Origin: an uncultured Candidatus Saccharibacteria bacterium
Lineage (GTDB): Bacteria > Patescibacteriota > Minisyncoccia > Phycocordibacterales > PALSA-1337
NCBI GenBank assembly: GCA_964406895.1
Contig: CAYOTK010000004.1
Span: 26,016-90,015, forward strand
Direction of reading: 5' to 3'
Length of the DNA stretch: 64,000 nucleotides
Shown here: positions 5,492 through 45,099 of the stretch, piece after piece
Layout of the letters: each line of letters opens with the position of its first letter
Numbering within the stretch: position 1 is the stretch's first letter
Position numbers and translations under genes: made by a program
The notes under the pieces: generated by a model
The model's input: the letters and a program-made list of their open reading frames with translations, nothing else
Told to the model about the DNA's origin: nothing
Database searches by the model: none

Positions 5492-5502
5492 AAGAGGAAA
5501 TT

Positions 5503-25343: not shown

Positions 25344-26879
25344 ATGAGCATAGCCAAAACCTTCAGTGCACAAACAATAGGATTAAAAACCGAAATAATA
25401 AGCGTTGAAATAGACATATCTAATGGTCTTAATTCCTTTTCTATTGTTGGAATGGGTGACAGGGCGGTTGCAGAAGCAAAAGACCGCATATCAGCAGCAA
25501 TCAAAAATTCTGGCTACACATCACCAAAACAAAAGAATCAAAAAGTCGTCATATCACTTGCTCCTGCCGATGTCAGGAAAGAAGGGCCGTCATTCGATCT
25601 TTCTATGGCAATCGGATATCTCAAGGCGTCAGGAGATGTTGATTTCGATACAGAAGGTAAATTATTTTTGGGAGAACTTTCATTATTGGGAGAAGTAAAA
25701 CAAATAAACGGCATATTGCCGATACTTTGTGCCGCGAAAAATATGGGCTTCAATCAAGCCTTTATTCCTGAAAAAAATAAAAAAGAGGCTTCTCTGGCTA
25801 AAAATATTGATATATATGCAGTTTCTTCACTGCAAGAATTGATAGAACATTTGTCCAACAAAAAACAAGCACCTAAAATACTTTTTGTCACACCACAGTC
25901 ACGCAGTTTCGTAGCAAAATACACAGACATGTCTTCTATACGTGGCAATGAAAACATAAAAAGAGGCCTAGAAATAGCCGCAGCAGGAGCTCATAACGTT
26001 ATCATGTGTGGCCCTCCTGGAACAGGCAAGACTATGCTTGCCCAAAGTTTTGTCACAATTCTGCCAGAACTTACGCAAGAACAATGCATTGAAGTTACTA
26101 GCATACATTCCATAGCAAAAATTCTAAAAGAAGAGCTGATAACAAATCCGCCGTTCCGTTCGCCACATCATACCGCCTCATATCCATCCATTGTCGGAGG
26201 CGGGAATATACCCAAACCTGGAGAAATTACCCTGGCACATAGAGGTGTGCTTTTTCTCGACGAACTACCAGAATTTGACCCGAAAGTATTAGAGGCTTTG
26301 AGACAACCCTTAGAAGAGAAAATTATTACAATATCTAGAGCGCGAGGATCTGTGGCATTCCCAGCACAATGCATTTTGATAGCCTCAATGAACCCGTGTC
26401 CATGTGGAAGAGGGGCTTCGAGAGGATGTGTTTGCCCCAATCACATTGTTGAGTCATACAAAAGAAGAATTTCTGGACCAATTACGGATAGGATTGATAT
26501 TTGGCTAAATGTTGAAAAAGTTGACTATGATAAACTTTCTGCGAGAAACCCTAGTGGAGAAAATTCTGCATCGATAGCCAATAGGGTAAAAGAAGCTAGA
26601 ATTTTACAAGAAGAAAGATTTTTAAAAATAAATAATAAAAATGATACACAAAAGTATTTCAACAGTGAAATGAACGCCGAAGACATAGATAAACTCATAG
26701 AAATGTCCGATGAATCGCGAAATACTCTTACTAAAACCTCACAAAAATTCCAATTATCAGGAAGATCTTTCCACAGATTAATAAAAGTCTCGAGAACTAT
26801 AGCGGATCTCTGCAAAAGCCCAATAATTCAAAACGAGCACGTTCTCGAAGCTATACAATATAGACAAAAAATATTTTAG
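25344..26879 (+). CDS. comM: YifB/ComM family Mg-chelatase-like AAA+ ATPase
   Basis: N-terminal Lon-like substrate-binding region (SIVGMGDRAVAEAKDRISAAI). Walker A is CGPPGTGKTMLA and Walker B is VLFLDELPEF. C-terminal ChlI-like region. 511 aa. Confidence 0.8.
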   Translation: MSIAKTFSAQTIGLKTEIISVEIDISNGLNSFSIVGMGDRAVAEAKDRISAAIKNSGYTSPKQKNQKVVISLAPADVRKEGPSFDLSMAIGYLKASGDVDFDTEGKLFLGELSLLGEVKQINGILPILCAAKNMGFNQAFIPEKNKKEASLAKNIDIYAVSSLQELIEHLSNKKQAPKILFVTPQSRSFVAKYTDMSSIRGNENIKRGLEIAAAGAHNVIMCGPPGTGKTMLAQSFVTILPELTQEQCIEVTSIHSIAKILKEELITNPPFRSPHHTASYPSIVGGGNIPKPGEITLAHRGVLFLDELPEFDPKVLEALRQPLEEKIITISRARGSVAFPAQCILIASMNPCPCGRGASRGCVCPNHIVESYKRRISGPITDRIDIWLNVEKVDYDKLSARNPSGENSASIANRVKEARILQEERFLKINNKNDTQKYFNSEMNAEDIDKLIEMSDESRNTLTKTSQKFQLSGRSFHRLIKVSRTIADLCKSPIIQNEHVLEAIQYRQKIF

Positions 26880-27928
26880 AACGGATTTCTGGCTCCACGA
26901 ATCTCAAAATGAAGGTGGGGGCCAGTCGATCTGCCTGTAGAACCAACATATCCAATTGTTTCACCTTGTTCTACTTTGGCCCCAACACGAGTTGCGCTCT
27001 TGATTATGTGAGCATAAAGGGTTTGTGTGCCGTTTGGATGCGAAACTACAATATAGTTTCCATATCCTCCATGCCAACCACCATCAGCAAGACTTATGAT
27101 AACTATTCCATCAGCTGACGCGCGTATAGGTGTGCCAATAGGAGCGGCCAAATCTACACCGTTGTGACCGTGTAGCCCCTGACTCCTATATCCTCCAATA
27201 ATAGGACGTATATAATAGCCGGAATATGCAGGCAAACCGGAGGAACTGCCACTAGAAATTTTGGATGCAACTGAAATTTCGGCATCTGGAATGATAATTG
27301 TCTGACCAGAAATAAGTTTGGTATTGATAGTAATATCGTTATATCTCAATACTTCTTCGATATCTGCTTTATATTTCTTTGTAATGGATGAAATTGTATC
27401 TCCCTTTGAAACTGTGTATTTAACACCAGAAACAGGCAAAATAATAAGAGTCTGACCGACCCTTAGGACTGATTTGCTACCACCTAGATCATTTGCCCAA
27501 ACAATTGTACTTATAGAAACATTAAACATCTTGGCAATACTGGACAAACTATCTCCTTCACGGACTATATATGTACTAATAGATGTATTATAGTCAGCTT
27601 CATCAATATTGGAACTCGATAATGCCTCTGCAGTAAGTACATTGCCTTGAATGGGTAGAGAATCAGCAGGTTTATTTGGATTTGGATCAAGATTCACGGC
27701 GGCCTGAAGTATGGGCATATTTTGTGAATTCATAACAACAGGTGGGTTAGATTTGGCAGAAGCAGACTCACCGCCAACCAATGAATTCACGAGTGAAACG
27801 ATGCTTGCATCAGCAGTTTTTGCTCCAAAAATAGTAGATGAAATAACCAGAACAGAAATTACAAATACAAAAAATATATTGCGGAATTCGAAAACATATT
27901 TAATTAATTTTTTATCAAATAATATCAT
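26876..27928 (-). CDS. LysM-domain M23 family metallopeptidase
   Basis: N-terminal TM/signal. Two LysM repeats (YIVREGDSLSSIAKMFNVSISTIVWANDL; YTVSKGDTISSITKKYKADIEEVLRYNDI). M23 motifs HNGVDLAAPIGTPIRA and YVGSTGRSTGPHLHFEIR. Confidence 0.8.
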   Translation of the reverse strand: MILFDKKLIKYVFEFRNIFFVFVISVLVISSTIFGAKTADASIVSLVNSLVGGESASAKSNPPVVMNSQNMPILQAAVNLDPNPNKPADSLPIQGNVLTAEALSSSNIDEADYNTSISTYIVREGDSLSSIAKMFNVSISTIVWANDLGGSKSVLRVGQTLIILPVSGVKYTVSKGDTISSITKKYKADIEEVLRYNDITINTKLISGQTIIIPDAEISVASKISSGSSSGLPAYSGYYIRPIIGGYRSQGLHGHNGVDLAAPIGTPIRASADGIVIISLADGGWHGGYGNYIVVSHPNGTQTLYAHIIKSATRVGAKVEQGETIGYVGSTGRSTGPHLHFEIRGARNPF

Positions 27929-30942: not shown

Positions 30943-31980
30943 ATGAAAAAAAATGTACTCAAATATACATTTATGTTGCTAGCTCTTTTTGTTATGTCTC
31001 GTGATGCATATGCACAGAACAACATTCCTCAGGACTTATTAAGTTCGGGTTTCAAATTTGAGAAAAACCTCAAGATGGGTGATTCTTCATATCCGGATGT
31101 CAATTATTTGCAATATTTCTTGAACAAAGATGACAGGACGATGGTTTCCAGAATCGGTGCAGGCTCAGACAAACAAACTACTTCATTTTTCGGGTCAAAA
31201 ACCAAGAAAGCTCTCAATAATTTCCAAAATATATACAAATTACCACAAGGAATATTCGGCCCAGAATCGAGAGCAAAAGCCAATCAAATACTGGATATTA
31301 TGAGAAGCGCCACCACGACTGCGAGCAAACAAGGCTCGAATAATTCATTTAGAGTAGATGATGAAAAAGTTATAAATCTAATGTCAGAGAAAATCGACAA
31401 ACAAACAAACAAAATCACCAGCAATTCGCAGAAAGAATCAATAAAAACCAACATTATAGCCAAACTCAAAGACGAAATACGTAGAGCAAGATTCCAATCA
31501 TATATCAACAAATCTGGTTTCCAAATGGTATATGACAGTGATAAAGAAGATCTGACATTCAAAAAAGATTCTCTAGGCCCTTCGGGTTGGGAAAAATTCT
31601 TAACATATGCAAAAAAAGCATTTTCAACAACAGTAGCGCATGCATACTCGAAATCTAGCTCCAATCAAAATCTCGCACTCGGTTTCGGTGGAGGGGGAGC
31701 AGAAACACCTTTTGGTGGAATGCACGTATTAGCTATACAATGCACTTGCGGACAAAATACTCTGCACTATATTCTGGATTATAGAACTAATAATCTTTTG
31801 GCTCTAATATATCAACCTGGAAGCTCAATTCTTTATTCGAACTATAACCTATATGGAACGTATGAGCTCGGAACATACGGCCAAGTCACACAAAGCTGCC
31901 AAATCGAAGCAGGCGAGGATTGTGTTGAACTACAATCAGACGGAGATTTGGGTCATTCACCTGGAACAGGAACATCATAA
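30943..31980 (+). CDS. Hypothetical secreted protein
   Basis: Signal peptide MKKNVLKYTFMLLALFVMSRDAYA. 345 aa with no recognisable catalytic motif. First gene of a block of secreted/membrane proteins leading to the VirB4 locus. Confidence 0.45.
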   Translation: MKKNVLKYTFMLLALFVMSRDAYAQNNIPQDLLSSGFKFEKNLKMGDSSYPDVNYLQYFLNKDDRTMVSRIGAGSDKQTTSFFGSKTKKALNNFQNIYKLPQGIFGPESRAKANQILDIMRSATTTASKQGSNNSFRVDDEKVINLMSEKIDKQTNKITSNSQKESIKTNIIAKLKDEIRRARFQSYINKSGFQMVYDSDKEDLTFKKDSLGPSGWEKFLTYAKKAFSTTVAHAYSKSSSNQNLALGFGGGGAETPFGGMHVLAIQCTCGQNTLHYILDYRTNNLLALIYQPGSSILYSNYNLYGTYELGTYGQVTQSCQIEAGEDCVELQSDGDLGHSPGTGTS

Positions 31981-32014
31981 AAAGACCGAGATGTTAACAT
32001 GTATTGGCGATTAA

Positions 32015-32914
32015 ATGCCTGATATAATTGAGTTTGGTATGTCTACCACCAAACTATTTCGTTTCAAAAATATTTTTGTATTGTTTATTTGCATATTGGC
32101 TGTATTCCTGACTCTTTTGTATACAAGAAACAAACAAAATGGTGGTAACACTGCCCAAAACAGCATTTCTGTTACAAATACAAAAACGCCTAACAAATTA
32201 CCTGAGAATTCTGAATGGAAAAAAGATTTTTTCACTGGTTCAGTGACAACAAACAAGGCAGATCAGAAAAGTTCAAAATCCACAAACGTCGAGAAACCAC
32301 TTACTTTGACTGACAAATTGGGCAGGGAATTCTTCACTAAATATGTTGAGTTGAAACAACAAAATTTGGCTGATGATCAAAAAACAGTCGCAAGCGCAAT
32401 GGAACAAACACTAGCAAACGCTCTAAGTGATATACCTCAAATAAAGAAATACACTCTAAATCAACTAAACATAACGAATACAAACGACAAAGAAAGCATA
32501 AAGAGTTATGCAAACTCTATTGGTCTTGTCTTCATAGAATTATGGCCAACAACAGATCCAGCACAAATTACGAACGAAGCATTTGAAAGCGGAAATGTGA
32601 AACTGTTGAAAAATATAGAGCCTCTCACTATTTCTTATGATAAAATAGTGAAAAGACTTCTTATTATCCCTGTGCCGAAAATTCTTGCTTCAGATCATCT
32701 CGACATTCTCAATTCCGCAAGTTCACTACTCAATATTTCCCAAGGATTAAGAAGTGTAGAAGCGGATCCAACAAAAGCAATTATTGCGTTAAATGACTAT
32801 CAAAATACCATGGACACATTGAAATACGCCCTCATAAATCTCAACACTTATTTCAAAAGTTATGGTTTGTATTTTGGGGATTCAGAGCCTGGAAATGTAT
32901 TTAGCACGATATAA
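32015..32914 (+). CDS. Hypothetical membrane-anchored protein
   Basis: N-terminal TM segment (IFVLFICILAVFLTLLY). 299 aa. Confidence 0.45.
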   Translation: MPDIIEFGMSTTKLFRFKNIFVLFICILAVFLTLLYTRNKQNGGNTAQNSISVTNTKTPNKLPENSEWKKDFFTGSVTTNKADQKSSKSTNVEKPLTLTDKLGREFFTKYVELKQQNLADDQKTVASAMEQTLANALSDIPQIKKYTLNQLNITNTNDKESIKSYANSIGLVFIELWPTTDPAQITNEAFESGNVKLLKNIEPLTISYDKIVKRLLIIPVPKILASDHLDILNSASSLLNISQGLRSVEADPTKAIIALNDYQNTMDTLKYALINLNTYFKSYGLYFGDSEPGNVFSTI

Positions 32915-32915
32915 A

Positions 32916-34700
32916 ATGAAATTTTATTTTACAAAAATTCAAAAAAGAATTCTGTTCATGAGCATGGTTGTAATCTTGCTCTTTGTATCGAATATTCAAA
33001 CAACAAAGGCCCAGCAAAGCCAGAATACCGTCCCTATAGGAACAGGATTTGATTTCCAGAGCATAATGAATTACAACAAGAATTTTAAATACGACAAAAT
33101 CGCCTATACAATTGCAAAGCAAATTCTTCACCAAATGACCGTTAGTGTAGTCAATTGGATCAATTCTGGTTTCAAGGGTAGTCCTGCATTCCTTACAAAT
33201 CCAGAAGGATTTTTCTTGGATGTTGGAGATCAACTCACGGGACAATTTATTTCAAATAGCGGACCGTTAGCCAGACTTTGTTCTCCGATCAATCTTGATC
33301 TACGACTTCAACTCGCACTCAATCAATCCGAATTCGTAGATCAGAGATATTCTTGTACCCTTAGCACGGTTATTGGCAATGTGAAGAGAGCACGAGTTCA
33401 AACTGGCATAGATATATCATCTCGACAGGGTGGAGCAACCATAGGAGATATGATTTCAGGAGATATTTTGACCAATCCGAATCAATTAAGTCTAGGTGCC
33501 GGTGGGACATCGCTGGATGCCGAAGGTCGTTTCTTATCTGGTAATTTCGATGAGGCGGGCTGGCAAGGATTCTTAGCATTAGCACTAGAACCACAAAACA
33601 ATTATTACGGAGCATACATGTTGGCCCAGAATGATCTGCAAACTCAAATAGCACAGAAACAGGCTGCTATAAATGCTGATTTGAATAGAGGTAACGGTTT
33701 CTTGTCTTGGCAAAAATGCGATGATGTTACAAGTCAGTTTTCTTTGTCTGCAAGCGATCCAAAAGGAGAAGGAGGGGCTGCCGGAAACTCATATGGATTA
33801 AATACCGATCAAATCAATCAGCTCAATGCGGGAGGTCCACAAGCAGTTAAGCTTCCTGCTGGCTCAAGCATACAAAAGAAAATCGATGTCAAAACTGGCA
33901 AAACAACATTTGAAAAATGTGAGACTGAAACCCCTGGCTCCGTCATATCTAATACACTTAAGAAGCAACTAGATGTTCCAGCCACAGAACTTGAGCTTGC
34001 GGATAACATAAATGCTGTTGTAAATGCTCTTGTAAGTCAGATGATAAGCAAAATGTTAGGCGGAGGTTTGCGCAGTTTGAGTCCTAATGGCTCTAGTAAT
34101 GGTGAGTCATTCACCAATCAAGTTATAAGAGAGGAAATCATTAATCCGCCGTATACAGGAGCACAAATTGCAAAATTAAATTCGGATATAGAAACAGCCA
34201 AAAAATCCGCTAATGATTACAAGTCCATATACGACCAATCGATAGGTTTGATGACTGATACCAAAACAAGATTTGAAACAGCCCAAGCATGTTTCGTAAC
34301 TCTGAATAATAATCCGATGGCTATATATACCATAAAGCAGAGAGCCGTAGATGGCATCGTAAATATAGAAAGTAAAATTAAAAATGTAATAGATCCAAAA
34401 CTGAAAGAATTAGCCTCTCAACAAAGGTACGCAAATTCCACAATAGACAAAATAAACCAGGTTCAGGCTGACGTTGCCGGACAAACAGCAAATAACAGCA
34501 CGAAACTGAGTGCTCAAGATTATTCAGAAACATATACGACTATAATAGAATCAACCATTAACTCTAACAATTCTGTGGCTACAGCCCAAAAGGCATTAGA
34601 CGAACTCAAGAAAACAATTACCGAATTAAACGCGGAAGCAAAGAGGTTACAAGATGAGTGTTACCAACTCAGTTATAATGCAGACAAACAAAATCGTTAA
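32916..34700 (+). CDS. Hypothetical secreted protein with coiled-coil C-terminus
   Basis: Start taken at MKFYFTK (signal peptide ILFMSMVVILLFVSNIQTTKA), 2 nt after the previous stop. About 595 aa. Confidence 0.45.
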   Translation: MKFYFTKIQKRILFMSMVVILLFVSNIQTTKAQQSQNTVPIGTGFDFQSIMNYNKNFKYDKIAYTIAKQILHQMTVSVVNWINSGFKGSPAFLTNPEGFFLDVGDQLTGQFISNSGPLARLCSPINLDLRLQLALNQSEFVDQRYSCTLSTVIGNVKRARVQTGIDISSRQGGATIGDMISGDILTNPNQLSLGAGGTSLDAEGRFLSGNFDEAGWQGFLALALEPQNNYYGAYMLAQNDLQTQIAQKQAAINADLNRGNGFLSWQKCDDVTSQFSLSASDPKGEGGAAGNSYGLNTDQINQLNAGGPQAVKLPAGSSIQKKIDVKTGKTTFEKCETETPGSVISNTLKKQLDVPATELELADNINAVVNALVSQMISKMLGGGLRSLSPNGSSNGESFTNQVIREEIINPPYTGAQIAKLNSDIETAKKSANDYKSIYDQSIGLMTDTKTRFETAQACFVTLNNNPMAIYTIKQRAVDGIVNIESKIKNVIDPKLKELASQQRYANSTIDKINQVQADVAGQTANNSTKLSAQDYSETYTTIIESTINSNNSVATAQKALDELKKTITELNAEAKRLQDECYQLSYNADKQNR

Positions 34701-34703
34701 AAC

Positions 34704-36614
34704 ATGAATAGAAATTATCAAAACAGAATATATAAAATACTTTCACTGATAATTGTCTTTGTTATTGTTGGTACCAATATCGTGCACGGTCAAGCAGCCG
34801 CATCTTCATTCACGTCTTTCCTTGGTGTTCCCGATATTTATGGCTTGGTAAATCAAGTACTTGGCTGGCTTGCCAACTATCTGCTCATGATAATGTCTTT
34901 GCTATTGAGCATGGCCGCTGCCGCGCTCAATACTTCAATAGTCATAACAATGCATATAAGGGAATTCGTTGATAGCACTCCTGTTATATATGAAGTCTGG
35001 AAAATAATAAGAGACATTTCAGGAATATTCTTCATATTCGTATTGCTTATTGCTGCAATCAAAATCATTCTTGGTCTTGATACGAAAATAAGCGAAGTTA
35101 TAAAAAACATAGTAATAGCCGGTGTTCTCATCAATTTCAGTTTCTTCATCGTTAGCGTCCTTATCGATGCTTCAAACATTGTTTCACAGACAATATACAA
35201 TGCCATGATACCCAATTCTCCAGCCGTAACTATGTCTGATTTTGGTCCTGCAGTTTCTGATGGTAAGGGTGGTTCGAACGGTGGCATCAAGGCATTGACT
35301 CAAAAATACTTCTCGAACACTCCTTCGAAGGGAAGTATAACCGACATATTCATGCAAAGTCTCAGTGTGCAGAGTTTGTACAACAAACAGCTCATGAATA
35401 ACAATCAATACAAAAATATTGATAATAATTCCAGTAGTGGCATCATGACAATGATCAAAATCATACTTATTGCAGTTGTTGGTTCAATAATCATGTTTAC
35501 ATCTGCTGTTAGTTTCATGATTGCCGCGGGAGCATTCATTGTAAGACTTGTAATATTATTGTTCTTATTGGCATTTTCACCGATATATTTTGCTGGAATG
35601 GTCATTCCTGGAATAAAAGAATACGTTGGCGACTTCAAAAATCAGCTCCAATCACAGCTTATATTCATGCCTGTATACTTACTGCTTATGTACGTGGCTC
35701 TAAGAGTTTTGAATGAAAGCAAAATATTAGGAACTGGCTATATGCAGTTATACCAGGGCAATCTGGGTAATTCATGGGCTATCGATCTTATAGCTCTTGG
35801 TGTTAACTTCGCACTAGTTATTGTCATTCTAAACATACCGCTTATAGGCGCCATGAAATTGGGCGGTTCTGCCACCAAGCTGTTCAGTAATTTGGCTTCG
35901 AAATATGGAGCGTCCAATGTGTGGAAAAATGTTGGCAGTTTCGCCGGAAGAAATACTATTGGTGTATCAGCTTCAATGCTTAATAACAGTCAGATTGCAA
36001 AAAGTATCTATGCATATACTCCTGGTCTAGGCAGAATCGTAAACAATAGACTATCCAAGATAAGCGGTTCTGGTTTCGGAGTTAAGGGTGGAAGCTATGA
36101 TCAAACCAGAAAAGAACACGTGGAGTCGGTCAGGAAATTCAGTGAGTCATTGGGGCATGATCCAAGCCTAACAAGCAAGGAGGCTATTGACAAGATAAAA
36201 GCAGACACGACACTTGAGTACAGTGGTCGTATTGTAGCAAAGGAATCTGCTGTGTCCATGGCTGAAAGAGCCATGATTGCAGAGACAGATCCAGTTCGCA
36301 AGGCATACAAAACTGAGGAGTACGATAAACTGAAGAGAGAGCTTGATGACATGCAGAAAAATAGAGAAACAAATATAAACAAACAATCGGAAGAAAAGAT
36401 AAATAAAATAAAAAATGAAAGAAAAAATAAAGTGGCAGATTACTATGAAAACGGGGTAAGGAATACTGTGCTGGGAGCTGTTGGTGTTAAACCAAAATTC
36501 AACATGGATATAGTTAGAGCTATTAAAAAAGAAAAAAAAGAAAGTGATGAAATAATGAATTTACTCAGAAAAATCGATGGCAAAGCAGGAAGTTCAGGTG
36601 ATTCAAAAAAATAA
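34704..36614 (+). CDS. Polytopic membrane protein, VirB6/TrbL-like candidate
   Basis: 636 aa, with at least 8 hydrophobic segments over the first ~400 aa and a hydrophilic Lys/Glu-rich coiled-coil tail. Lies 4 kb upstream of a VirB4-type ATPase. Confidence 0.4.
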   Translation: MNRNYQNRIYKILSLIIVFVIVGTNIVHGQAAASSFTSFLGVPDIYGLVNQVLGWLANYLLMIMSLLLSMAAAALNTSIVITMHIREFVDSTPVIYEVWKIIRDISGIFFIFVLLIAAIKIILGLDTKISEVIKNIVIAGVLINFSFFIVSVLIDASNIVSQTIYNAMIPNSPAVTMSDFGPAVSDGKGGSNGGIKALTQKYFSNTPSKGSITDIFMQSLSVQSLYNKQLMNNNQYKNIDNNSSSGIMTMIKIILIAVVGSIIMFTSAVSFMIAAGAFIVRLVILLFLLAFSPIYFAGMVIPGIKEYVGDFKNQLQSQLIFMPVYLLLMYVALRVLNESKILGTGYMQLYQGNLGNSWAIDLIALGVNFALVIVILNIPLIGAMKLGGSATKLFSNLASKYGASNVWKNVGSFAGRNTIGVSASMLNNSQIAKSIYAYTPGLGRIVNNRLSKISGSGFGVKGGSYDQTRKEHVESVRKFSESLGHDPSLTSKEAIDKIKADTTLEYSGRIVAKESAVSMAERAMIAETDPVRKAYKTEEYDKLKRELDDMQKNRETNINKQSEEKINKIKNERKNKVADYYENGVRNTVLGAVGVKPKFNMDIVRAIKKEKKESDEIMNLLRKIDGKAGSSGDSKK

Positions 36615-36617
36615 TAT

Positions 36618-37238
36618 ATGAATAATCAAATAAACATAGAGCAAGCAATAGAAGAGAAATACTCGAAATTACCAGAACCTTTGAAAAGGGCCATAAACAG
36701 TCCTGACCTGATGACAAAAGTCATAGCAATTGGCAAACAAAACGATTTGATGATAGACCAAATAGGACAACTACGAACAAATGTGTTGCTAACGATGCTA
36801 GGATTACAACCATCATCAACATTCACTGATATTTTGAAGGGGGACATGGGTGTACCGGAAATAAAAGCAAATAAAATCGCGACTGAAATCAACACTGCAG
36901 TTTTCCAGTCAATAAAAACTTATTTAGCCGAATTCGAGGAAGAAAACGAGACCGAAGAAGAAGCACCGGCTACAAATTCAGATCCACGCATCTCTTCCGT
37001 AGAAAAAGTAGGTGGATTCACAGTAGAGAAGCACGGTGATATACCAAAATTTGAAAAACCCGCCCCAACAGAGAAGGCAAATCCAGCACAAGGCAATACT
37101 CATGTAGAAGCTATTGTTGAAAACCTACTAACAACACCAAACATTCAACACGAACAGATAATCAATAAATCTGCCAGTGTAAATAATGCAGGCGTAAGCA
37201 TAAATCCGAGCACAGATCCTTACAGAGAAGAGTTCTAG
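36618..37238 (+). CDS. Hypothetical protein
   Basis: 206-aa ORF, 3 nt after the previous gene. No motif. Confidence 0.4.
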   Translation: MNNQINIEQAIEEKYSKLPEPLKRAINSPDLMTKVIAIGKQNDLMIDQIGQLRTNVLLTMLGLQPSSTFTDILKGDMGVPEIKANKIATEINTAVFQSIKTYLAEFEEENETEEEAPATNSDPRISSVEKVGGFTVEKHGDIPKFEKPAPTEKANPAQGNTHVEAIVENLLTTPNIQHEQIINKSASVNNAGVSINPSTDPYREEF

Positions 37239-37275
37239 GCTTTGGTAACTGCTTTTTGTACGTTATAATACTGTC

Positions 37276-37710
37276 ATGCGTTTACAAGTTCCTCAATTTA
37301 TTGAAGTCGAAGATAAGATATTCAATCAGCTAACACTCAAGCAATTCATATATTTGGCTGGTGGGGGAGGCTTATCATTCATGGTATATGCTTTCTTGGG
37401 CAATTTCCTCCTAGCACTTATACCTATAGCAATAATCATGGGGATATCTTCAACATTTGCCTTCTACAAAATCAACAACAAGCCTTTCATAAATGTTGTT
37501 GAGGCGGCATTCAAATATTATTTTGGTAACAAATTGTATATTTGGAGAAAAGAAGACAAGCCAAAACAGAATACAGAAGCAAATAACATAGCACAAGCCA
37601 AAAATTACGCATCAATAATGGTCCCCAAGATATCAGATAGTAAACTGAAAGATCTAACCTGGAGCCTAGATATCAAAGAAAGCATGTATTCAAATCGCAA
37701 TCAACAATAA
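37276..37710 (+). CDS. Small two-TM protein, PrgI/VirB3-like candidate
   Basis: 144 aa with two adjacent TM segments (FIYLAGGGGLSFMVYAFLG; LLALIPIAIIMGISSTFAFY). It sits immediately upstream of the VirB4-like ORFs, as VirB3/PrgI does. Confidence 0.4.
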   Translation: MRLQVPQFIEVEDKIFNQLTLKQFIYLAGGGGLSFMVYAFLGNFLLALIPIAIIMGISSTFAFYKINNKPFINVVEAAFKYYFGNKLYIWRKEDKPKQNTEANNIAQAKNYASIMVPKISDSKLKDLTWSLDIKESMYSNRNQQ

Positions 37711-37711
37711 T

Positions 37712-38350
37712 ATGGCCAACTCACAAACAACTCAAAATTTCGTACCAATCCAAGAAATAAGAGACGGTATTGTTATCCTGAAAGACGGAGGAATGAGATC
37801 TATTGTACTTGCATCTTCACTCAATTTTGCACTCAAATCCGCTGATGAACAAAATTCCATAATGCTTCAGTTCCAAAATTTCCTCAACTCTTTGGATTTT
37901 TCTGTTCAAATTTTCGTACAATCCAAGAAACTAGACATCCGACCATACATAGCGCTTCTAGAAGAGAGGTATAAAGAACAAGTAACAGATCTAATGAAGA
38001 TTCAGGTACGTGAATATATTGAGTTCATAAAAGCATTCGTCGAGAATACAAACATAATGTCGAAAAGTTTCTTCGTAGTCATACCGTATGATCCCGCACT
38101 GATTAATACAGGAGGGAATCCGCTATCAAAGGTCCTACCAGGCAAAAAAACTAGCACAGAAACATCCGACGCACAGAATGAGCAATTCCAAGAATACAGA
38201 AGTCAACTAGAGCAAAGAGTTGCAGTGGTTGAACAAGGATTAGTTAGATGTGGAATAAGAGCAGCAGAACTCGGAACCGAAGAAGTGGTAGAATTGTTCT
38301 ACAAGATATTCAATCCTGGAGAAACAGAAAAGCCAATTCAAATATCATAA
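37712..38350 (+). CDS. VirB4 N-terminal-domain-like protein (possible split or frameshifted VirB4)
   Basis: IQEIRDGIVILKDGGMRSIVLASSLNFALKSADEQNSIMLQFQNFLNSLDFSVQIFV resembles the VirB4/TraC N-terminal domain. Its stop is 1 nt before the ATG of the ATPase ORF, which is in a different frame. Confidence 0.4.
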   Translation: MANSQTTQNFVPIQEIRDGIVILKDGGMRSIVLASSLNFALKSADEQNSIMLQFQNFLNSLDFSVQIFVQSKKLDIRPYIALLEERYKEQVTDLMKIQVREYIEFIKAFVENTNIMSKSFFVVIPYDPALINTGGNPLSKVLPGKKTSTETSDAQNEQFQEYRSQLEQRVAVVEQGLVRCGIRAAELGTEEVVELFYKIFNPGETEKPIQIS

Positions 38351-38351
38351 T

Positions 38352-40166
38352 ATGTCATTATTTAGCAAATTATTTGGGAAAAAAGAAGAATCACCGCTGG
38401 TGTCCATATTGCCAGAGGAAATTTATCAAGCAGGCGTTCTAGAACTAAAAGACGTCATTGCTCCATCAGCGCTCAAAATAAGCCCGAAGGAAATGAATCT
38501 GGGTGAGAAAATAGGTCGTACTTTGTTCGTTATTTCATATCCTAGATTCCTAGACGAGAATTGGTTCGCGCCCATCATAAACCTAGACAAGGTTTTCAAT
38601 GTTTCAATATTCATACATCCTGTGGATACAGCAAAAATACTACGACACTTCCAGAAAAAAGTCGCCGAGGTTCAAAGCCAAATACAAATAAGAGAGCGCA
38701 AGGGTCTAGTTAGGGATCCTCAGCTCGACACAGCGTATCAGGATCTAGAAGCCTTGAGAGATCAACTCATGCAAGCACAAGAACACCTTTTCGATGTTGG
38801 TGTATATATAAACATCTTTGCCGACAATGAAAATGAGTTGGACAAACTAGAATCAGAAATAAAATCTATACTAGAATCAAAGCTCGTCTATGTTAAACCC
38901 GCTCTATTCCAGCAAGAACAGGGGTTCAAGAGTGTTATTCCAATAGCTGACGACTCTTTGGCGGTACACTCCAAACTCAACTCTTCACCATTGTCGAGCT
39001 TATTCCCATTCGTTTCTTTCGATCTAACATCTGACAAGGGCATACTTTATGGTATTAACAGACACAATTCTTCACTCGTTCTTTTCGATCGTTTTTCTCT
39101 CAACAATTACAATTCTGTAACATTTGCCGTTGCTGGTTCTGGTAAATCCTACTGTACGAAACTTGAGATTCTGAGAACACTCATGTTCGACACAGATGTC
39201 ATAGTTATAGATCCGGAAAAAGAATATGAGTATATGGCAGAAGCAACAGGAGGTAAGTATTTCAATATATCACTCAATTCTGAACACCATATCAATCCAT
39301 TTGATCTGCCAATACCGAGAGAAGACGAGGCTGCTTCGGACGTATTGCGTTCAAACATTGTTAACCTGGTCGGTCTATTCAGGATCATGTTGGGTGGATT
39401 GACCCAAGAAGAAGACGCCATCATAGATAGAGCCATAACAGAAACATATGCCTTGAAGGATATAACGGCTGATTCTAATTTCAAAAACGTTGAACCGCCA
39501 CTATTGTCTGATTTTGAATTAGTCTTGGCAGGAATGGAGGGCACTGACTCTCTCGTCCAGAGACTTACCAAATATACAAAAGGCACATGGGCCGGATTCA
39601 TCAATCGCCCATCGAACGTAGATATAAATAAGCGCTTCGTTGTATTCTCATTGCGAGACATGGAAGACGAATTGAAGCCTGTTGCCATGTATATAGTTAC
39701 ACATTATATATGGAACGCTATTCGCAAGAATTTGAAAAAGCGCTTATTGGTTATTGATGAGGCTTGGTGGATGATGAAATCAGAAGACACGGCATCATTC
39801 CTATTTGGTCTGGCCAAAAGAGGTCGTAAATATTTCTTGGGATTGTCTACTATTACTCAGGACGTGGACGACTTCTTACGATCTCCATATGGATTACCCA
39901 TAGTTACGAACTCTTCTATACAGATATTGCTCAAACAATCTCCTGCGGTCATCGATAATATTCAAAAAACCTTCAATCTCACAGATGAGGAAAAATACTT
40001 ACTTCTAGAGTCTGATGTGGGGGAGGGCATATTCTTCGTTGGACTAAAACACGTCGCCATAAAGATTGTTGGTTCATATACTGAAGATCAAATAATAACC
40101 ACAAATCCGGCACAGATATTACAGATAGAAAGATCGAAGAAAGAACTAGAACAGGCAAGCCGCTAA
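38352..40166 (+). CDS. virB4: Type IV secretion VirB4/TraC-family ATPase
   Basis: Walker A VTFAVAGSGKSYCTK and Walker B RLLVIDEAWWMM, plus a C-terminal RGRKYFLGLSTITQ sensor region. 604 aa. Confidence 0.75.
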   Translation: MSLFSKLFGKKEESPLVSILPEEIYQAGVLELKDVIAPSALKISPKEMNLGEKIGRTLFVISYPRFLDENWFAPIINLDKVFNVSIFIHPVDTAKILRHFQKKVAEVQSQIQIRERKGLVRDPQLDTAYQDLEALRDQLMQAQEHLFDVGVYINIFADNENELDKLESEIKSILESKLVYVKPALFQQEQGFKSVIPIADDSLAVHSKLNSSPLSSLFPFVSFDLTSDKGILYGINRHNSSLVLFDRFSLNNYNSVTFAVAGSGKSYCTKLEILRTLMFDTDVIVIDPEKEYEYMAEATGGKYFNISLNSEHHINPFDLPIPREDEAASDVLRSNIVNLVGLFRIMLGGLTQEEDAIIDRAITETYALKDITADSNFKNVEPPLLSDFELVLAGMEGTDSLVQRLTKYTKGTWAGFINRPSNVDINKRFVVFSLRDMEDELKPVAMYIVTHYIWNAIRKNLKKRLLVIDEAWWMMKSEDTASFLFGLAKRGRKYFLGLSTITQDVDDFLRSPYGLPIVTNSSIQILLKQSPAVIDNIQKTFNLTDEEKYLLLESDVGEGIFFVGLKHVAIKIVGSYTEDQIITTNPAQILQIERSKKELEQASR

Positions 40167-40170
40167 ATTC

Positions 40171-40620
40171 ATGAAAAAAGTAAATAAAAACACTTGGACA
40201 AAGTTATATGTCACAGCGGGTATTATAGATATCGTTCAATTAATCATTGATTTAACCGGCGTTGGTGTTGCCATAAACACTTTTGCCGATCCTGTAATTG
40301 GGATTGGATTTATTGCGTATCTGAATCACATTGGGGTAAGTGTGTTTAAGCATCCTTCTAGATTTGCATCAATGGTTGGTGTGGGTTTATTAGAAAATTT
40401 CACAGGTGGAATTGCACCAGCATGGATAGCTGATATATTCTACATTCATCATTCATACAAGAAAGAACTTGCTCAATATGAAGAAGATGAAAAAATAACA
40501 CAGTTAACATCAAATACTCGACCCACCATGTACGACGGGGGAATGAGGAATCCAGAAAGTTCAAACACAAATCAAAACGAACCCTTGGTCAATAACGGGT
40601 ACAGAAGGCCACAAAGATAA
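40171..40620 (+). CDS. Hypothetical small membrane protein
   Basis: 149 aa with hydrophobic segments. Immediately downstream of virB4. Confidence 0.4.
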   Translation: MKKVNKNTWTKLYVTAGIIDIVQLIIDLTGVGVAINTFADPVIGIGFIAYLNHIGVSVFKHPSRFASMVGVGLLENFTGGIAPAWIADIFYIHHSYKKELAQYEEDEKITQLTSNTRPTMYDGGMRNPESSNTNQNEPLVNNGYRRPQR

Positions 40621-40678
40621 ATATAAATTCAGCTAGCTGTGAATTGATGATATGTGACGTTCACGATACAATATAGTC

Positions 40679-41740
40679 ATGATTTCTCTCTTTTCGCAAA
40701 AAAATAAAATAATAAAGGAATATATCGGTATTTCTATTTTTGCTCTGTTATTTTTCAGTATTTTTTACACAGCACGAGCACAAGGTTTACCATCAGTAAT
40801 TGGCGGACTTGAGCTTACACCATCAACGTCTAGTCCCGCCCCAGGACAAACAGTAACAATTACCGCTCAAAGCTTCAGTTCAAACATAAATTCCGCTAAA
40901 ACAACATGGTCAGTGGGTGGCAAAGTATTACAATCAGGCACAGGACTTACAAAACTCGACATCGTTGCACCTGTTTTGGGTCAAAAAAAGACAGTTTTAT
41001 TGACAATAGTCACTAGCGAAGGGCAGACAATATCAAAAAGCATAGACATAATTCCTGGGTCCATAGATATGATCGTAGAAACGAATGGCTACAAACCGCC
41101 GTTATTTCTAGGCAAACTATCTCCCGTATATCAAAACGAAGTCAAAATAATCGCAATACCCCACATTGCCATCAATACAAAAGAAGAATTAGACCCCAAC
41201 AAATTGGTGTATCAATGGAAGAAGAATGATCAAGTACTACAGAGTCAATCTGGTTTCGGTAAGAATTTCGTCACCGTTTCTGGAGACATAATACCGAGGC
41301 CTTATATCGTAACTGTTACAGCAAGCACACAGGATGGTAGATATTCTTCGACCGGAGCAGTAAATATTGCAGAATCAGACCCACAAATATCTTTCTACAT
41401 TAACGATCCTTTATATGGGATTCTTTTTAACAAAATAGCAGACAGCAACATAAGGATTGATACAAACAGGAGAGTGAACGTTCTTTCAGTGCCTTATGGT
41501 TTCAATCCGAACACGGATCTTAGCAACATTGTTCTTGATTGGATAATAAACGGTGAATCTCATCAAGAATTAGCCAAGAGCACATCAGTTGTTTTGCGCG
41601 CACCTGAAGGCAAGGCAGGATACTCGAACATACAATTACAAATTAGCAATTCAGAGAAATTACTACAAAGAGCGTCTTCTGGTTTTTCGACCACTTTTAC
41701 AGCGAATAAAAGTTCAGCAGATAATAATGTGACATTTTGA
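40679..41740 (+). CDS. Hypothetical secreted protein
   Basis: Signal/TM IGISIFALLFFSIFYTARA. 353 aa, beta-rich composition. Confidence 0.45.
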   Translation: MISLFSQKNKIIKEYIGISIFALLFFSIFYTARAQGLPSVIGGLELTPSTSSPAPGQTVTITAQSFSSNINSAKTTWSVGGKVLQSGTGLTKLDIVAPVLGQKKTVLLTIVTSEGQTISKSIDIIPGSIDMIVETNGYKPPLFLGKLSPVYQNEVKIIAIPHIAINTKEELDPNKLVYQWKKNDQVLQSQSGFGKNFVTVSGDIIPRPYIVTVTASTQDGRYSSTGAVNIAESDPQISFYINDPLYGILFNKIADSNIRIDTNRRVNVLSVPYGFNPNTDLSNIVLDWIINGESHQELAKSTSVVLRAPEGKAGYSNIQLQISNSEKLLQRASSGFSTTFTANKSSADNNVTF

Positions 41741-43047
41741 TAAACATGAAAATAAATACAAAAAAAACAATTAGTGCATACATTTTGGCGATATTAATAT
41801 TGAGTTCATTTTCATATTCAGTATCAGCAATCACAAATACGAGAACCGCAAAAGCTGCGAGTGATGGGGAATATACACTTCTCGAACCCTTGCCTTGTAT
41901 TCCTGGGTCAGGTGTAACATGTCCTTCATCAATGAAAACGACAATTGATTTCAGGAATTACATGCAGTATGCGTTCAATCTTTTGATTGGCCTAGCCGCT
42001 GCTGCCGCCGTATTCATGATGGTTTGGGGTGGTTTCAAATACATGAGCACTGATTCTTGGTCAGATAAGTCTGAAGGTTTGGACATATTCAAACACGCAA
42101 TTTATGGATTGCTACTCGTCTTGTCTTCATATCTTATATTGAAAACCATCGATCCTCGCCTCGTTGAAATACCGAGCAATATTGTGCCAACGATTACGTT
42201 GAAAAAGAGTCTGGAAGCACCAATGGATGACTTTTTTGTTCAAATGATAAATGAGGCATCAAAATATCAAGAGCAAGGGCAAGGACTTGTTGAAAAAGCT
42301 AAAAAATCAAAAGCGGATGTTAGTGTACTTGAATCACAAAAACAAGACATAATCAAACAAATAAACGATTTAAAGAATCCAGATGAAATTACCCCTCTTG
42401 AGCAAGGACTAAATGAATCAGATCCAAAAATACAAGAACTTAGAGCAAAAATTGAAAATATTGACAATGAAATAAACAGAATAAAGGCTGAAATTTCAAT
42501 TGACGTTGGTTTGTCTACCATGACAAATGGGGTTGTTTCTCAAACGCTAAATGACTTGGCATTAAACAAGATTCGCCAAGACAGTGTGTTTAGAGAATTT
42601 TATACAGGAAATAAAAACATAAACAAAAGCACAATAGATGCAATTTTTGCTGAATCAAACATAGCTGTAGAAAAGATTGTTGCACAAAGGACCAGACAAC
42701 TTGAGGAATTGGGCAGTCAAGATAAAATAGGGCTTATTCAAGAAAAAGCACGAGAAGTTTATCTTACCTTAGATATAGCAAAGGTTAACGCAATAATTCA
42801 AAACACAAAAAGCCAAAATGATGTAAACGGAGCATTTGGAAATTTTGTATCTCGTAGTGACACAGAAACAGCATATGTCGGCAGCGAAAAAATGGGCACA
42901 AAGCAGGAACTAAGAAACAAACTTCAAACAGACATAAACAATATTTCAACTAAAATTAATAGCGTGAATAATCAAGATTCGAAAGCAGATCTCCAAAAAA
43001 AACTGAACGACACAAAAAATTTATTGATTGAAAAATTCGGCCATTAA
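41737..43047 (+). CDS. Membrane protein with pilin-like hydrophobic hairpin and long coiled-coil
   Basis: Signal peptide, then FNLLIGLAAAAAVFMMVWGGFKYM...IYGLLLVLSSYLIL (TrbC/VirB2-like two-helix hairpin), then a ~280-aa coiled-coil. Overlaps the previous gene by 4 nt. Confidence 0.4.
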   Translation: MINMKINTKKTISAYILAILILSSFSYSVSAITNTRTAKAASDGEYTLLEPLPCIPGSGVTCPSSMKTTIDFRNYMQYAFNLLIGLAAAAAVFMMVWGGFKYMSTDSWSDKSEGLDIFKHAIYGLLLVLSSYLILKTIDPRLVEIPSNIVPTITLKKSLEAPMDDFFVQMINEASKYQEQGQGLVEKAKKSKADVSVLESQKQDIIKQINDLKNPDEITPLEQGLNESDPKIQELRAKIENIDNEINRIKAEISIDVGLSTMTNGVVSQTLNDLALNKIRQDSVFREFYTGNKNINKSTIDAIFAESNIAVEKIVAQRTRQLEELGSQDKIGLIQEKAREVYLTLDIAKVNAIIQNTKSQNDVNGAFGNFVSRSDTETAYVGSEKMGTKQELRNKLQTDINNISTKINSVNNQDSKADLQKKLNDTKNLLIEKFGH

Positions 43048-43048
43048 A

Positions 43049-44356
43049 ATGACAAAAAAAACACTTATATTATTCATAGGATTGATAATACTTGCGGGAA
43101 TTGCTGGGGGAGCATATTGGTATTTCCTTATGCGCACGCCCGATGTGGGCCCAATAAATAGGAACAACAACCCAAGCAATAACTCAGGGGGATTTTCGCC
43201 CATATCAAGACCAGTTTCACAAAACAATTCTACAAGCACAGATATCACGGAGCCAGAAGTAAGCCCAACCCCAACTCAGACGAGCACAAGGAATACGCCT
43301 GACATATTGAGACTTATAAGCGAAACACCAGTGGGCGGTTATGGCATGCTGACAACAGCAACGACCACAATAATAAGATGGGTAGACAGGGGCAGAGGAA
43401 ACGTATATGAAACAACAGGGGAGAGTAACGAGATATCGACATTGTCGAACACTATTTTACCTAGAATATACAACAGCTTATGGAACAAAAACATCACTTC
43501 TTTCATAGGCAACATGATAGACAGTGAAGGAAATGATTATTCAACAATATTTGCCGAATTGAAACTTAGACCAGCAGAAAAAAGCGCAACAACATCAACG
43601 AGCACGGCAATAAGCACAGTTACAAAATACGAATTGAAAGGCAAGGAATTGCCCCAAAACATAATAACCATTGCAGTATCGCCCAAAAAAGACAAAATAT
43701 TTTTCGTAGTTGTAGGATCAGAAAAGGGAACAGGCTATGTTTCAACATTCGACGGTAAAAATATAGTGAAAATATTCGACACCCCCGTTACAGAAATAAC
43801 AGCCGACTGGCCAACAGAAGACTCCATAACCATAAACACGAAGGCGGCATCTGACATGTTCGGATTCATGTACAAAGTAGACCCCAAAACAGGAAAATGG
43901 AAAAAGCTTGTTAGTGGTTTGCCTGGAATGCAAACAAAAATGAGTCACGATGGTAAATACGTCATAATATCGGCATCAGGGAGCAATAGGGATGTGGTTA
44001 CAAGCATATACAATGTGCAGAAAAACACCGGCACAAGCATGCTAGTCAAAACAATGGCTGATAAGTGTGTTTGGGGCAATCAATACAAAAACGTTGTATA
44101 TTGTGCCGTACCATCTCAATTACCATCTGCTACATATCCTGACGATTGGTATGTGGGCAACGTGGTAACATCAGATAAAATCTGGCAAATAAACGCCGAT
44201 ACAGGAGAATTGCACTTGGTATCTTCAATTGTAGACAAAGCCAACAGACAAATAGACGCATACAACCTCATACTCGATGAAAAAGATAACTACTTATTAT
44301 TCACAAACAAAAGAGACCTCTCTCTTTGGTCTTTAGACCTGACTGCAACCAACTAG
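43049..44356 (+). CDS. Hypothetical secreted protein
   Basis: Start taken at MTKKTLILFIGLIILAGIAGG, 2 nt after the previous stop. 435 aa. Confidence 0.45.
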   Translation: MTKKTLILFIGLIILAGIAGGAYWYFLMRTPDVGPINRNNNPSNNSGGFSPISRPVSQNNSTSTDITEPEVSPTPTQTSTRNTPDILRLISETPVGGYGMLTTATTTIIRWVDRGRGNVYETTGESNEISTLSNTILPRIYNSLWNKNITSFIGNMIDSEGNDYSTIFAELKLRPAEKSATTSTSTAISTVTKYELKGKELPQNIITIAVSPKKDKIFFVVVGSEKGTGYVSTFDGKNIVKIFDTPVTEITADWPTEDSITINTKAASDMFGFMYKVDPKTGKWKKLVSGLPGMQTKMSHDGKYVIISASGSNRDVVTSIYNVQKNTGTSMLVKTMADKCVWGNQYKNVVYCAVPSQLPSATYPDDWYVGNVVTSDKIWQINADTGELHLVSSIVDKANRQIDAYNLILDEKDNYLLFTNKRDLSLWSLDLTATN

Positions 44357-44358
44357 AA

Positions 44359-45099
44359 TTATTTCTTCAGGAATTTCTTGCTAATATAAAGCTCCTGACA
44401 AAGTGTAAATAGGGAAGTAACAGACCAATAAATAGCAATTACCGCAGCTGCTCCAGGGAAACTCTTGGGGATGATCCAATATGTAGAAACAAAGGCGATT
44501 ATAGGAAAAACGTATTTCATTTGTGCGTTCATAGAATAAGCCACTTGAGCAGAAATATCTGATGTGTTGTTTGGTTTGGCAAGGCCTTTTTGTTGCCTAG
44601 AAGCGATACTAAAATACAATTGCAAGAATTGGGCCACAGCTGTTATGAGAGCCAAAACGAAACTTTTATGGGTTAGATCCAAACCCAGCAAGGAAGCCTT
44701 GATATGTGGAACACTAACAAAAGAATAAAGGAATTCTGGTCTGACTTCAGGAATAATCTTATAAAAAACTGATATTATACCGATAAGTATTGGTATCTGA
44801 ATCAAAAGCAACCAAACACTAGCAAAAGGTTTAATCTTCTTGTCTTTGTATAATTGCATGATCTTCAGGGCCTGAGTTTGTTTGTCGTTTGAATATTTTG
44901 ATTTTATTTCATTGGTCTCTGGTTCAACTTCTTTCATTCTTGCCTGCGTCAATAGTGCGCTTTTGGAAAGAGGGAAAAGAATAAATCTAACCACTATAGT
45001 AAAAAGGATAACAGCAACGCCGACATCAATTCCTGGTACAGAATTCATGATTAAGACAAGACCATTATAAAGCGGACGGAAAATTAATTCGTGATACAT
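44359..45099 (-). CDS. yidC: Membrane protein insertase YidC (short form)
   Basis: 246 aa with 5 TM segments in a YidC/Oxa1 arrangement. Gene order rpmH-rnpA-yidC. Confidence 0.8.
   Translation of the reverse strand: MYHELIFRPLYNGLVLIMNSVPGIDVGVAVILFTIVVRFILFPLSKSALLTQARMKEVEPETNEIKSKYSNDKQTQALKIMQLYKDKKIKPFASVWLLLIQIPILIGIISVFYKIIPEVRPEFLYSFVSVPHIKASLLGLDLTHKSFVLALITAVAQFLQLYFSIASRQQKGLAKPNNTSDISAQVAYSMNAQMKYVFPIIAFVSTYWIIPKSFPGAAAVIAIYWSVTSLFTLCQELYISKKFLKK

Follow-up and report, generated by a model that had tools for sequence, protein, structure and literature searches.

A probable Patescibacteria-clade type IV secretion locus beside dnaA on a patescibacterial contig

The locus and its described relatives

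Patescibacteria account for a considerable part of bacterial diversity. They are unable to synthesise nucleotides, lipids or most amino acids and must therefore obtain them from host cells. The leading candidate machine for this acquisition is a type IV secretion system (T4SS), which occurs in about 80% of patescibacterial genomes and is essential in the one species tested. VirB4, its motor ATPase, was detected in 2,417 of 3,035 patescibacterial genomes, where it forms a monophyletic clade nested in the MPF-FATA class (Quinonero-Coronel et al. 2025, PMC12102498); the Patescibacteria-clade system descends from this class of conjugation machinery of single-membrane bacteria. Near patescibacterial virB4, the same study found TrsD, PrgI/VirB3, VirB6 and VirB2-like pilins, a relaxase almost never and VirB8 almost undetectably, and in Paceibacteria and Microgenomatia the neighbourhood includes dnaA, dnaN, rnpA, ksgA and rpmH (PMC12102498). 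In Southlakia epibionticum, transposon sequencing (Tn-seq) showed that epibiotic growth requires the homologous cluster, SEML1_0006-0019, which includes essential pilins and in which neither a coupling protein nor a relaxase is recognisable (Wang et al. 2023, PMC10633639). Here we analyzed a 64,000-nucleotide (nt) stretch of contig CAYOTK010000004.1 (assembly GCA_964406895.1, labelled uncultured Candidatus Saccharibacteria bacterium), hereafter the window, and compare a twelve-gene cluster at positions 30943-44356 with these and other T4SSs.

We consider it very probable (roughly 0.85), judging from sequence, that this cluster is a chromosomal Patescibacteria-clade T4SS in the Paceibacteria arrangement, non-conjugative and coupling-protein-independent in design. 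The estimate covers identity and design, not the direction of transfer. As in the described Patescibacteria-clade systems, there are a VirB4, a separate TrsD, a PrgI/VirB3, a VirB6 and a VirB2-like pilin, with no relaxase, no adjacent coupling protein and no detectable VirB8, and the genes are chromosomal, beside dnaA, dnaN, rnpA, rpmH and ksgA/rsmA. Every sequence-level family feature that we tested was found, namely a separate TrsD, PrgI/VirB3, VirB6 and a VirB2-like pilin near virB4, and the dnaA-side position. By sequence criteria, the co-occurrence of three independent T4SS families over curated thresholds within 6 kb, in a recurring gene order, is beyond chance. The system is already known and published, and the window adds nothing fundamentally new to it; its locus provides a clean, complete example of the Paceibacteria arrangement. 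Saccharimonadia and Microgenomatia have arrays of short divergent pilins, whereas the window locus has a single pilin with a coiled-coil-type extension of about 300 amino acids (aa), and the peptidase or lysozyme that lies directly downstream of virB4 in Southlakia has no equivalent at that position here.

As an initial annotation of the window had described, the cluster consists of twelve consecutive open reading frames (ORFs) on the + strand, referred to as g1 to g12. Their packing is tight, and neighbouring ORFs are separated by -20 to +58 nt. That annotation also credited all twelve products with a signal peptide or transmembrane (TM) segment. A hydrophobicity scan combined with inspection of the N-terminal sequences supported this for nine of them (g1, g2, g3, g4, g6, g9, g10, g11 and g12), and the scan found neither feature in g5 (36618-37238), g7 (37712-38350) or the VirB4 gene g8 (38352-40166).

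Relatives were collected by a VirB4 scan over one genome per GTDB species, which returned at least 586 VirB4 relatives; the best 80 loci (L001-L080), chosen by VirB4 similarity, were compared with the window. These 80, with VirB4 identities of 77-92%, carry patescibacterial or unclassified ('bacterium') labels and none from another phylum, and the informative labels among them name Paceibacterota/Parcubacteria lineages. The label 'uncultured Candidatus Saccharibacteria' is attached to many of the nearest genomes, and Paceibacterota, Parcubacteria or Taylorbacteria to further ones that carry this locus at equal identity; where Saccharibacteria is given for these relatives, it looks like generic or wrong taxonomy.

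In the window, genes for a UvrD/PcrA helicase (28172-30103) and RsmA/KsgA (30124-30918) lie upstream of the cluster; downstream are yidC, rnpA and rpmH (45454-45588) on the - strand and, beyond and divergent from them, dnaA and dnaN. A tblastn search with 18 window proteins recovered the order uvrD, rsmA, g2 to g12, yidC, rnpA, dnaA, dnaN in nearly every locus with enough flank, and the rpmH/dnaA flank is likewise part of the recurring order in related Paceibacterota (Parcubacteria) genomes with enough flank. The G+C (GC) content of the cluster is that of its flanks. The conserved order with housekeeping flanks and the flank-like GC content thus indicate a vertically inherited chromosomal system under strong constraint rather than a mobile element.

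In the same genome pairs, identity ranged over 77-92% for VirB4, 54-80% for the TrsD-like protein, 55-76% for DnaA, 40-77% for PrgI, 40-66% for DnaN and 35-68% for YidC, and was about 20-50% for g2, g3, g4, g5, g10, g11 and g12. Among these loci, which were picked by VirB4 similarity, VirB4 (38352-40166) is more conserved than DnaA (45658-47094), DnaN, YidC and UvrD: the motor is here more strongly conserved than the replication initiator.

The VirB4 motor, its membrane partners and the pilin

The product of g8 (38352..40166, + strand) corresponds to the C-terminal two thirds of a VirB4 ATPase, including the P-loop. It matched the NCBIfam model conju_CD1110 (VirB4-like conjugal transfer ATPase) at 375 bits, above the cut-off of 325, as well as other VirB4/TraC models and Pfam P-loop_TraG (93 bits). 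Searches against PDB detected the VirB4 C-terminal domain 4ag5 (E 5e-38) and TrwK of R388 (E 8e-6), and a profile of the window VirB4 family matched PrgJ (7e-50) and TrsE (3e-40). Its tentative placement in the Patescibacteria clade of VirB4 was by proxy, from the MPF-FATA-type conju_CD1110 as the best family and from the labels of the 80 closest genome hits. The clear Walker motifs reported in the initial annotation were located at aa 259-266 (Walker A, AVAGSGKS; 39126-39149) and aa 465-470 (Walker B, LLVIDE; 39744-39761), and their key residues are invariant in 81 of 81 VirB4 sequences.

The missing N-terminal domain of VirB4 is encoded separately by g7 (37712..38350, + strand), whose 212-aa TrsD-like product matched the N-terminal region of NCBIfam VirB4_plasma (E 4e-11), positions 1-116 of conju_CD1110 (E 4e-6) and TrsD/TraD (E 8e-6); its public domain call is PF26593 TraC-like. 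The g7 stop codon, TAA, occupies 38348-38350, and the ATG of g8 follows one base on, at 38352, in a different frame. A frameshift or pseudogene was rejected as the cause of this split because g7 stands as an ORF of its own in each of the 79 related loci and the split matches the known TrsD/TrsE arrangement. The split VirB4 is a conserved two-gene arrangement, as is trsD-trsE of pSK41.

A two-TM protein resembling PrgI/VirB3 had been placed directly before VirB4. The protein is present, encoded by g6 (37276..37710, + strand), but g7 lies between the two. The g6 product matched Pfam PrgI at 38.3 bits (gathering score 27), has its TM hairpin at aa 31-66, and has orthologues of 40-77% identity in 77 loci.

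The product of g4 (34704..36614, + strand) shows at least six hydrophobic segments in the hydrophobicity scan and has a C-terminal region of about 200 aa that is hydrophilic and charged. In keeping with the earlier description of a VirB6/TrbL-like polytopic protein, we accepted it as a VirB6-type channel protein of the 'extended' kind. The window sequence gave weak matches only, to Gram-positive and mollicute conjugation membrane proteins. Among 46 orthologues, five matched Pfam TrbL/VirB6 (best 6e-5) and five the CD3337/EF1877 mobilome membrane family, and a precomputed PF19590 flag on three homologues was not reproduced in a fresh Pfam scan. Profile-to-sequence comparison of the g4 family with hhalign gave P values of 0.0015 to TrsL and 0.0031 to PrgH, against 0.16-0.58 for control pairs. 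When an AlphaFold2 model of aa 1-433 (predicted local distance difference test score, pLDDT, 74.9; predicted template modelling score, pTM, 0.70) was searched with Foldseek, TrwI chains ranked 2nd, 4th and 9th, none significantly; sequence identity to TrwI is 8%.

The filament subunit candidate is g11 (41737..43047, + strand), a VirB2-like T4SS pilin with a charged coiled-coil-type extension of about 300 aa. It matched Pfam T4SS_pilin at 32.8 bits (gathering score 26.6) and consists of a signal peptide, a two-helix hydrophobic hairpin at aa 76-135 and a C-terminal region (42150-43047) that is 36% E/K/Q/R/D and gave weak coiled-coil-type matches, which agrees with the pilin-like hairpin and long coiled coil noted earlier. 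Across loci L001-L080, the C-terminal extension reaches at least 147 aa in 49 of 60 pilin orthologues, and seven orthologues are bare pilins. We found no mention of a long pilin extension in the papers that we read.

Conjugation systems of Gram-positive plasmids are among the closest known systems. The Trs system of pSK41/pGO1 (Staphylococcus, MPF-FATA subclass) has the order trsC (VirB3-like)-trsD-trsE (VirB4), which matches g6-g7-g8, with TrsD as a separate gene; in addition, TrsL of pSK41 is a TrbL/VirB6 protein and TrsB is annotated as CagC (VirB2-like), which parallels further parts of the window locus. By contrast, pSK41 is a plasmid with a relaxase, the VirD4-like TrsK, the CHAP hydrolase TrsG, a topoisomerase III and a single-stranded DNA-binding protein, none of which is present in the window. 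VirB4 alone can be aligned confidently between the window and pSK41, the other pairs being weak (P 0.0015-0.013). The Prg/Pcf system of pCF10 (Enterococcus) shares the order prgH (VirB6)-prgI (VirB3)-prgJ (VirB4) and a VirB4 of the same NCBIfam family, CD1110, but its PrgJ is a single full-length VirB4 and it has no pilin; it also has PrgK (hydrolase), PrgL (VirB8-like), PcfC (VirD4-like), a relaxase and the surface adhesins PrgA/B/C. Family hidden Markov models searched against all pCF10 and pSK41 ORFs recovered only VirB4. When family profiles were aligned with individual Prg/Trs proteins by hhalign, the signals for VirB6, PrgI and TrsD were weak but in the right direction, and g2 and g9 gave none. 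With R388 Trw, Agrobacterium VirB and Legionella Dot/Icm DotA, the locus shares a VirB2-type pilin and a VirB4 P-loop that matches TrwK. It differs from this group in that VirB5, VirB7, VirB9, VirB10 and VirB11 are not in the window locus, and hence there is no outer-membrane core.

Pfam scans took in the 46 larger ORFs of the window (at least 104 aa), small ORFs being left out. No relaxase, VirD4/TcpA-type coupling ATPase or VirB11 was detected among these 46 ORFs, and the earlier statement that relaxase and coupling protein are lacking thus holds for them. The lack of a coupling protein among them argues against the conjugative substrate route.

Conserved partners without an assigned family

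The seven remaining proteins, g1, g2, g3, g5, g9, g10 and g12, form a conserved set within the related Paceibacteria genomes examined; six of them are membrane or secreted proteins, and g5 is cytoplasmic. Together with the unusually extended pilin, they constitute the remaining value of the window, as targets for structural and genetic work.

The first, g1 (30943..31980, + strand), is a secreted protein with an N-terminal signal sequence. It has two modules: one, at aa ~34-135, weakly resembles peptidoglycan-binding domains (PG_binding_1 E 0.0027, under the gathering score), and the other, C-terminal at aa ~246-345, is rich in Cys. In relatives these modules recur between rsmA and g2, on either strand and in one gene or two, and g1 is the least fixed, loosely attached member of the cluster. 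The next, g2 (32015..32914, + strand), is a bitopic membrane protein with its TM segment at aa 12-40 and an ectodomain of about 260 aa. Syntenic orthologues with 17-35% identity occur in 51 loci, and g2 had no match in Pfam, NCBIfam or PDB and no hhalign match to PrgL, TrsH or PrgD.

For g3 (32916..34700, + strand), the mechanical ORF start is 32862 and the likely start is the ATG at 32916. The protein has a signal peptide and a conserved N-domain rich in Cys, and three long helices form a bundle in its C-terminal part. Its family comprises at least 226 homologues, patescibacterial and all hypothetical, of which just one has a precomputed Pfam entry (PF13605). The family alignment contains 16 invariant columns, five of them Cys. 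In the AlphaFold2 model (pLDDT 72, pTM 0.43), the helices at 415-593 are confident and the N-domain is of medium confidence; a Foldseek search of this model against PDB returned generic three-helix bundles only, with E > 0.04. We considered a VirB5-like identity, which would combine a three-helix bundle with a globular part, and do not claim it, as nothing specific supports it. In profile-versus-PDB sequence searches, the g2, g3 and g4 families gave coiled-coil noise only.

Between the VirB6 and PrgI genes lies g5 (36618..37238, + strand), which encodes a cytoplasmic protein with no TM segment, a variable acidic linker and a C-terminal D-P-Y-R-E motif (37215-37238). It is syntenic in 50 loci. 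Within the motif, D200, Y202 and E204 are invariant and R203 is present in at least 90% of orthologues; the motif could act as a docking peptide. The slot of g9 (40171..40620, + strand), a small membrane protein with two to three hydrophobic segments, is occupied by an ORF of 110-339 aa in 49 of 68 loci, and 45 of these 49 have two to three hydrophobic segments. Its position is conserved and its sequence poorly so, with no family match in Pfam or NCBIfam and none by hhalign against the Prg/Trs proteins.

The last two partners may carry recognisable fold types. The secreted protein g10 (40679..41740, + strand; signal peptide) is probably built of immunoglobulin (Ig)-like domains, a domain type suggested by weak matches of its orthologues below curated thresholds: BiPBP_C in six, Ig_3 in four, plus TIG, Big_2 and MG4. 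The bitopic membrane protein g12 (43028..44356, + strand; start at ATG 43049 in public gene calls) has its TM segment at aa 8-35 and a low-complexity linker, and is represented by 53 syntenic orthologues. Its C-terminal domain may be a TolB-like beta-propeller: the top four profile-versus-PDB matches are all TolB (E 0.05-0.14), and single weak DUF5050 and DPPIV_N matches were also recorded. For the g10 and g12 families, the profile-versus-PDB searches thus gave sub-threshold Ig-like and TolB hints only. A VirB8-like protein (PrgL/TraM/TcpC) was sought among these partners; g2 and g9 had no family, PDB or hhalign match, g10 and g12 gave the weak Ig-like and TolB hints, and g3 had no fold match.

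Several points weigh against the identification of the cluster as a Patescibacteria-clade T4SS of the proposed design. These seven of its twelve proteins are without assignment, and no VirB8-like protein was recognised in the cluster. The AlphaFold2 models are of medium confidence (pLDDT 72-75), and Foldseek on its own yielded no significant VirB6 match. A helical pilus of the VirB2 type might not accommodate the pilin extension of about 300 aa. Since our evidence covers 64 kb, a relaxase or coupling protein could be encoded elsewhere in the genome, and VirD4-like matches far from virB4 are known from many patescibacterial genomes (PMC12102498). The cluster also contains no VirB1-like hydrolase. 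A LysM + M23 peptidase encoded 3 kb upstream on the other strand (26876..27928, - strand; Pfam Peptidase_M23 1.5e-31, LysM 3e-21) is a possible analogue and, if it belongs to the system, could be a VirB1-like helper that opens the cell wall; VirB1-type matches containing M23/LysM occur near virB4 in Paceibacteria (PMC12102498). Finally, the evidence for the window organism and for Paceibacteria consists of sequences and models, and the requirement for epibiotic growth has been demonstrated in Southlakia only.

Function and genomic surroundings

From established T4SS biology, VirB4 hexamers would dock on PrgI/VirB3 and VirB6 at the membrane and spend ATP pulling pilin out of the membrane, so building a pilus or tube through the cell wall, in which the Sec-exported VirB2-like pilin would be the filament subunit. 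The products of g2, g3, g10 and g12 and the coiled-coil extension of the pilin would form the extracellular part that meets the host cell, and transfer would bypass the conjugative coupling-protein route. The job of the locus is probably the exchange of large molecules with a host cell. The non-conjugative role in episymbiotic small-genome bacteria that the initial annotation had suggested agrees with the published description (PMC12102498, PMC10633639). A 2025 review (PMC12857230) and a perspective (PMC11665869) treat the function as open, with effector delivery and nucleic-acid import as the main ideas, and a 2026 preprint describes tubular structures at the parasite-host interface that may be T4SS pili.

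As to direction, we lean tentatively, at somewhat under even odds, towards uptake of host nucleic acid or other macromolecules by a machine like ComB of Helicobacter pylori or Ced of archaea, with VirB4 powering the import of host nucleic acid as a nucleotide source. Both of these systems have a VirB4-type ATPase without a relaxase or coupling protein, and small membrane proteins beside a polytopic one, as does the window locus. Patescibacteria lack nucleotide synthesis, and Southlakia requires its T4SS but can do without comEC, the gene for the ComEC competence channel (PMC12102498, PMC10633639, PMC11665869, PMC12857230); the 2026 preprint ties host RNA feeding to the monophyletic VirB4. The match of g8 to CedB is partial and weak (E 4e-8, 32 bits), far below the cut-off of 700, and general Pfam/NCBIfam scans found no homologues of ComB7-10 or CedA/A1/A2, although no CedA- or ComB-specific comparison was run. 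In addition, none of the cluster genes recognisably encodes a nuclease or a protein that binds nucleic acid.

Export of effector proteins into or onto the host cell for its manipulation is a less probable use of the same machine, and we regard it as rather unlikely. It is the commonest role of non-conjugative T4SSs and has been proposed for Saccharibacteria (PMC10633639, PMC11665869), and neither Bordetella Ptl nor Brucella VirB depends on a coupling protein (PMC12102498). However, export of the Ptl or Brucella type needs a periplasmic intermediate and an outer-membrane core, and a single-membrane cell has neither. In other monoderms, the sole reported effector-translocating T4SS depends on VirD4 (PMC12857230), and the cluster contains no recognisable candidate effector or chaperone gene.

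We think it improbable that T4SS parts have been kept solely to assemble a VirB2-type adhesive filament for host attachment. In the model T4SSs VirB and Trw, pilus assembly needs VirB4 and not the coupling protein. A pilin is present in the locus, with a large surface-exposed extension in 49 of 60 orthologues, and several secreted Ig-like or propeller-like partners could be adhesins. Against this, the genomes already encode type IV pili for attachment, as indicated by the PilB-type ATPase gene at 54330-56003, and adhesion alone requires neither the extreme conservation of VirB4 nor a retained VirB6 channel protein.

More doubtful still is the proposal that, in Paceibacteria, the ancestral monoderm T4SS core has been combined with a lineage-specific extracellular module into a new kind of 'feeding tube', which would contact the host and take in its RNA or DNA with no coupling protein involved. 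The module would comprise the pilin with a coiled-coil extension of ~150-460 aa, g3, the Ig-like g10, the propeller-like g12 and the bitopic helical g2, none of them, on this reading, with a recognisable counterpart in any described T4SS.

An integrated conjugative element (ICE), or a plasmid-derived transfer region that still moves DNA between cells, is strongly disfavoured and was rejected. The VirB4 does belong to the CD1110 family of Gram-positive conjugative elements, the PrgI-TrsD-VirB4 order does mirror trsC-trsD-trsE of pSK41, and a tyrosine recombinase is encoded in the window (18262-19209). But neither a relaxase nor a coupling ATPase is encoded among the scanned ORFs of the 64 kb (no search for oriT was made), the cluster has the GC content of the chromosome around it, and the housekeeping flanks recur in the same order in genomes of related species with enough flank. 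VirB4 trees, moreover, follow class-level taxonomy (PMC12102498), and the recombinase lies 12 kb from the cluster, behind housekeeping genes such as that for PNPase, and looks like an ordinary Xer-type enzyme. That the locus is no T4SS, but an FtsK/HerA-type ATPase among unrelated membrane proteins, is refuted: the secondary match to the DUF87/HerA central domain (29 bits) is common to all P-loop ATPases of the superfamily, and rather than the FtsK-like ATPase with partners lacking T4SS matches that the initial annotation had named as the contrary outcome, we found far higher-scoring, above-threshold VirB4 family matches, PDB matches to VirB4 and TrwK, and adjacent PrgI/VirB3, TrsD-like, VirB6 and VirB2-like pilin components, three of them besides the split motor.

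The Patescibacteria-clade T4SS locus adjoins a classical origin region, as judged by the gene arrangement on the dnaA side. The stop codon of g12 is 2 nt from that of the convergent yidC (44356-44359), and a 40-bp stretch immediately upstream of the dnaA start codon contains three DnaA-box-like sites. Across the window, DnaA-box matches are no more numerous than expected by chance, and only this local triplet is suggestive. Transcription of the T4SS operon is directed at yidC and the intergenic region between rpmH and dnaA (45454-45749). If oriC lies beside dnaA, which is an assumed position, the whole operon would be transcribed head-on to the replication fork, which would be an odd orientation if, as published work suggests, the genes are placed there to secure high expression.

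Promoter and terminator scans of the window returned sites no more numerous than in shuffled sequence, so the operon boundaries are drawn from gene spacing alone. Sigma-70-like hexamer pairs were seen at 37242-37269, before prgI, and at 40644-40672, before g10, each within one of the larger gaps between cluster genes; these pairs may be internal promoters, in a scan that is at chance level overall. No type IV pilus parts (PilB/PilT ATPase, PilC platform or type IV prepilins) were found within 30943-44356, and the PilB-type T2SSE ATPase encoded on the - strand at 54330-56003 (395 bits) marks a separate type IV pilus system.

Three further observations concern the more distant part of the window. 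A 521-aa ORF at 23341-24906, between the PNPase gene and a ComM/Mg-chelatase-like gene, has no Pfam match. Three DnaA-box-like 9-mers lie within 160 bp at 12394-12550, in the tRNA gene region, and one of them, at 12485, is a perfect TTATCCACA. Finally, positions 1-8800 have a GC content of 0.55-0.59, which falls sharply at about 8700-9100; the remainder of the window is at 0.31-0.42. ORFs within the higher-GC segment encode Csx3 domains (25-1236 and 7006-8715), a MoxR-type AAA ATPase (2498-3742) and a VWA protein (3755-5491), and the segment may be foreign DNA, acquired recently as an island next to a cluster of four tRNA genes (11213-13075), or the product of a chimeric assembly join.

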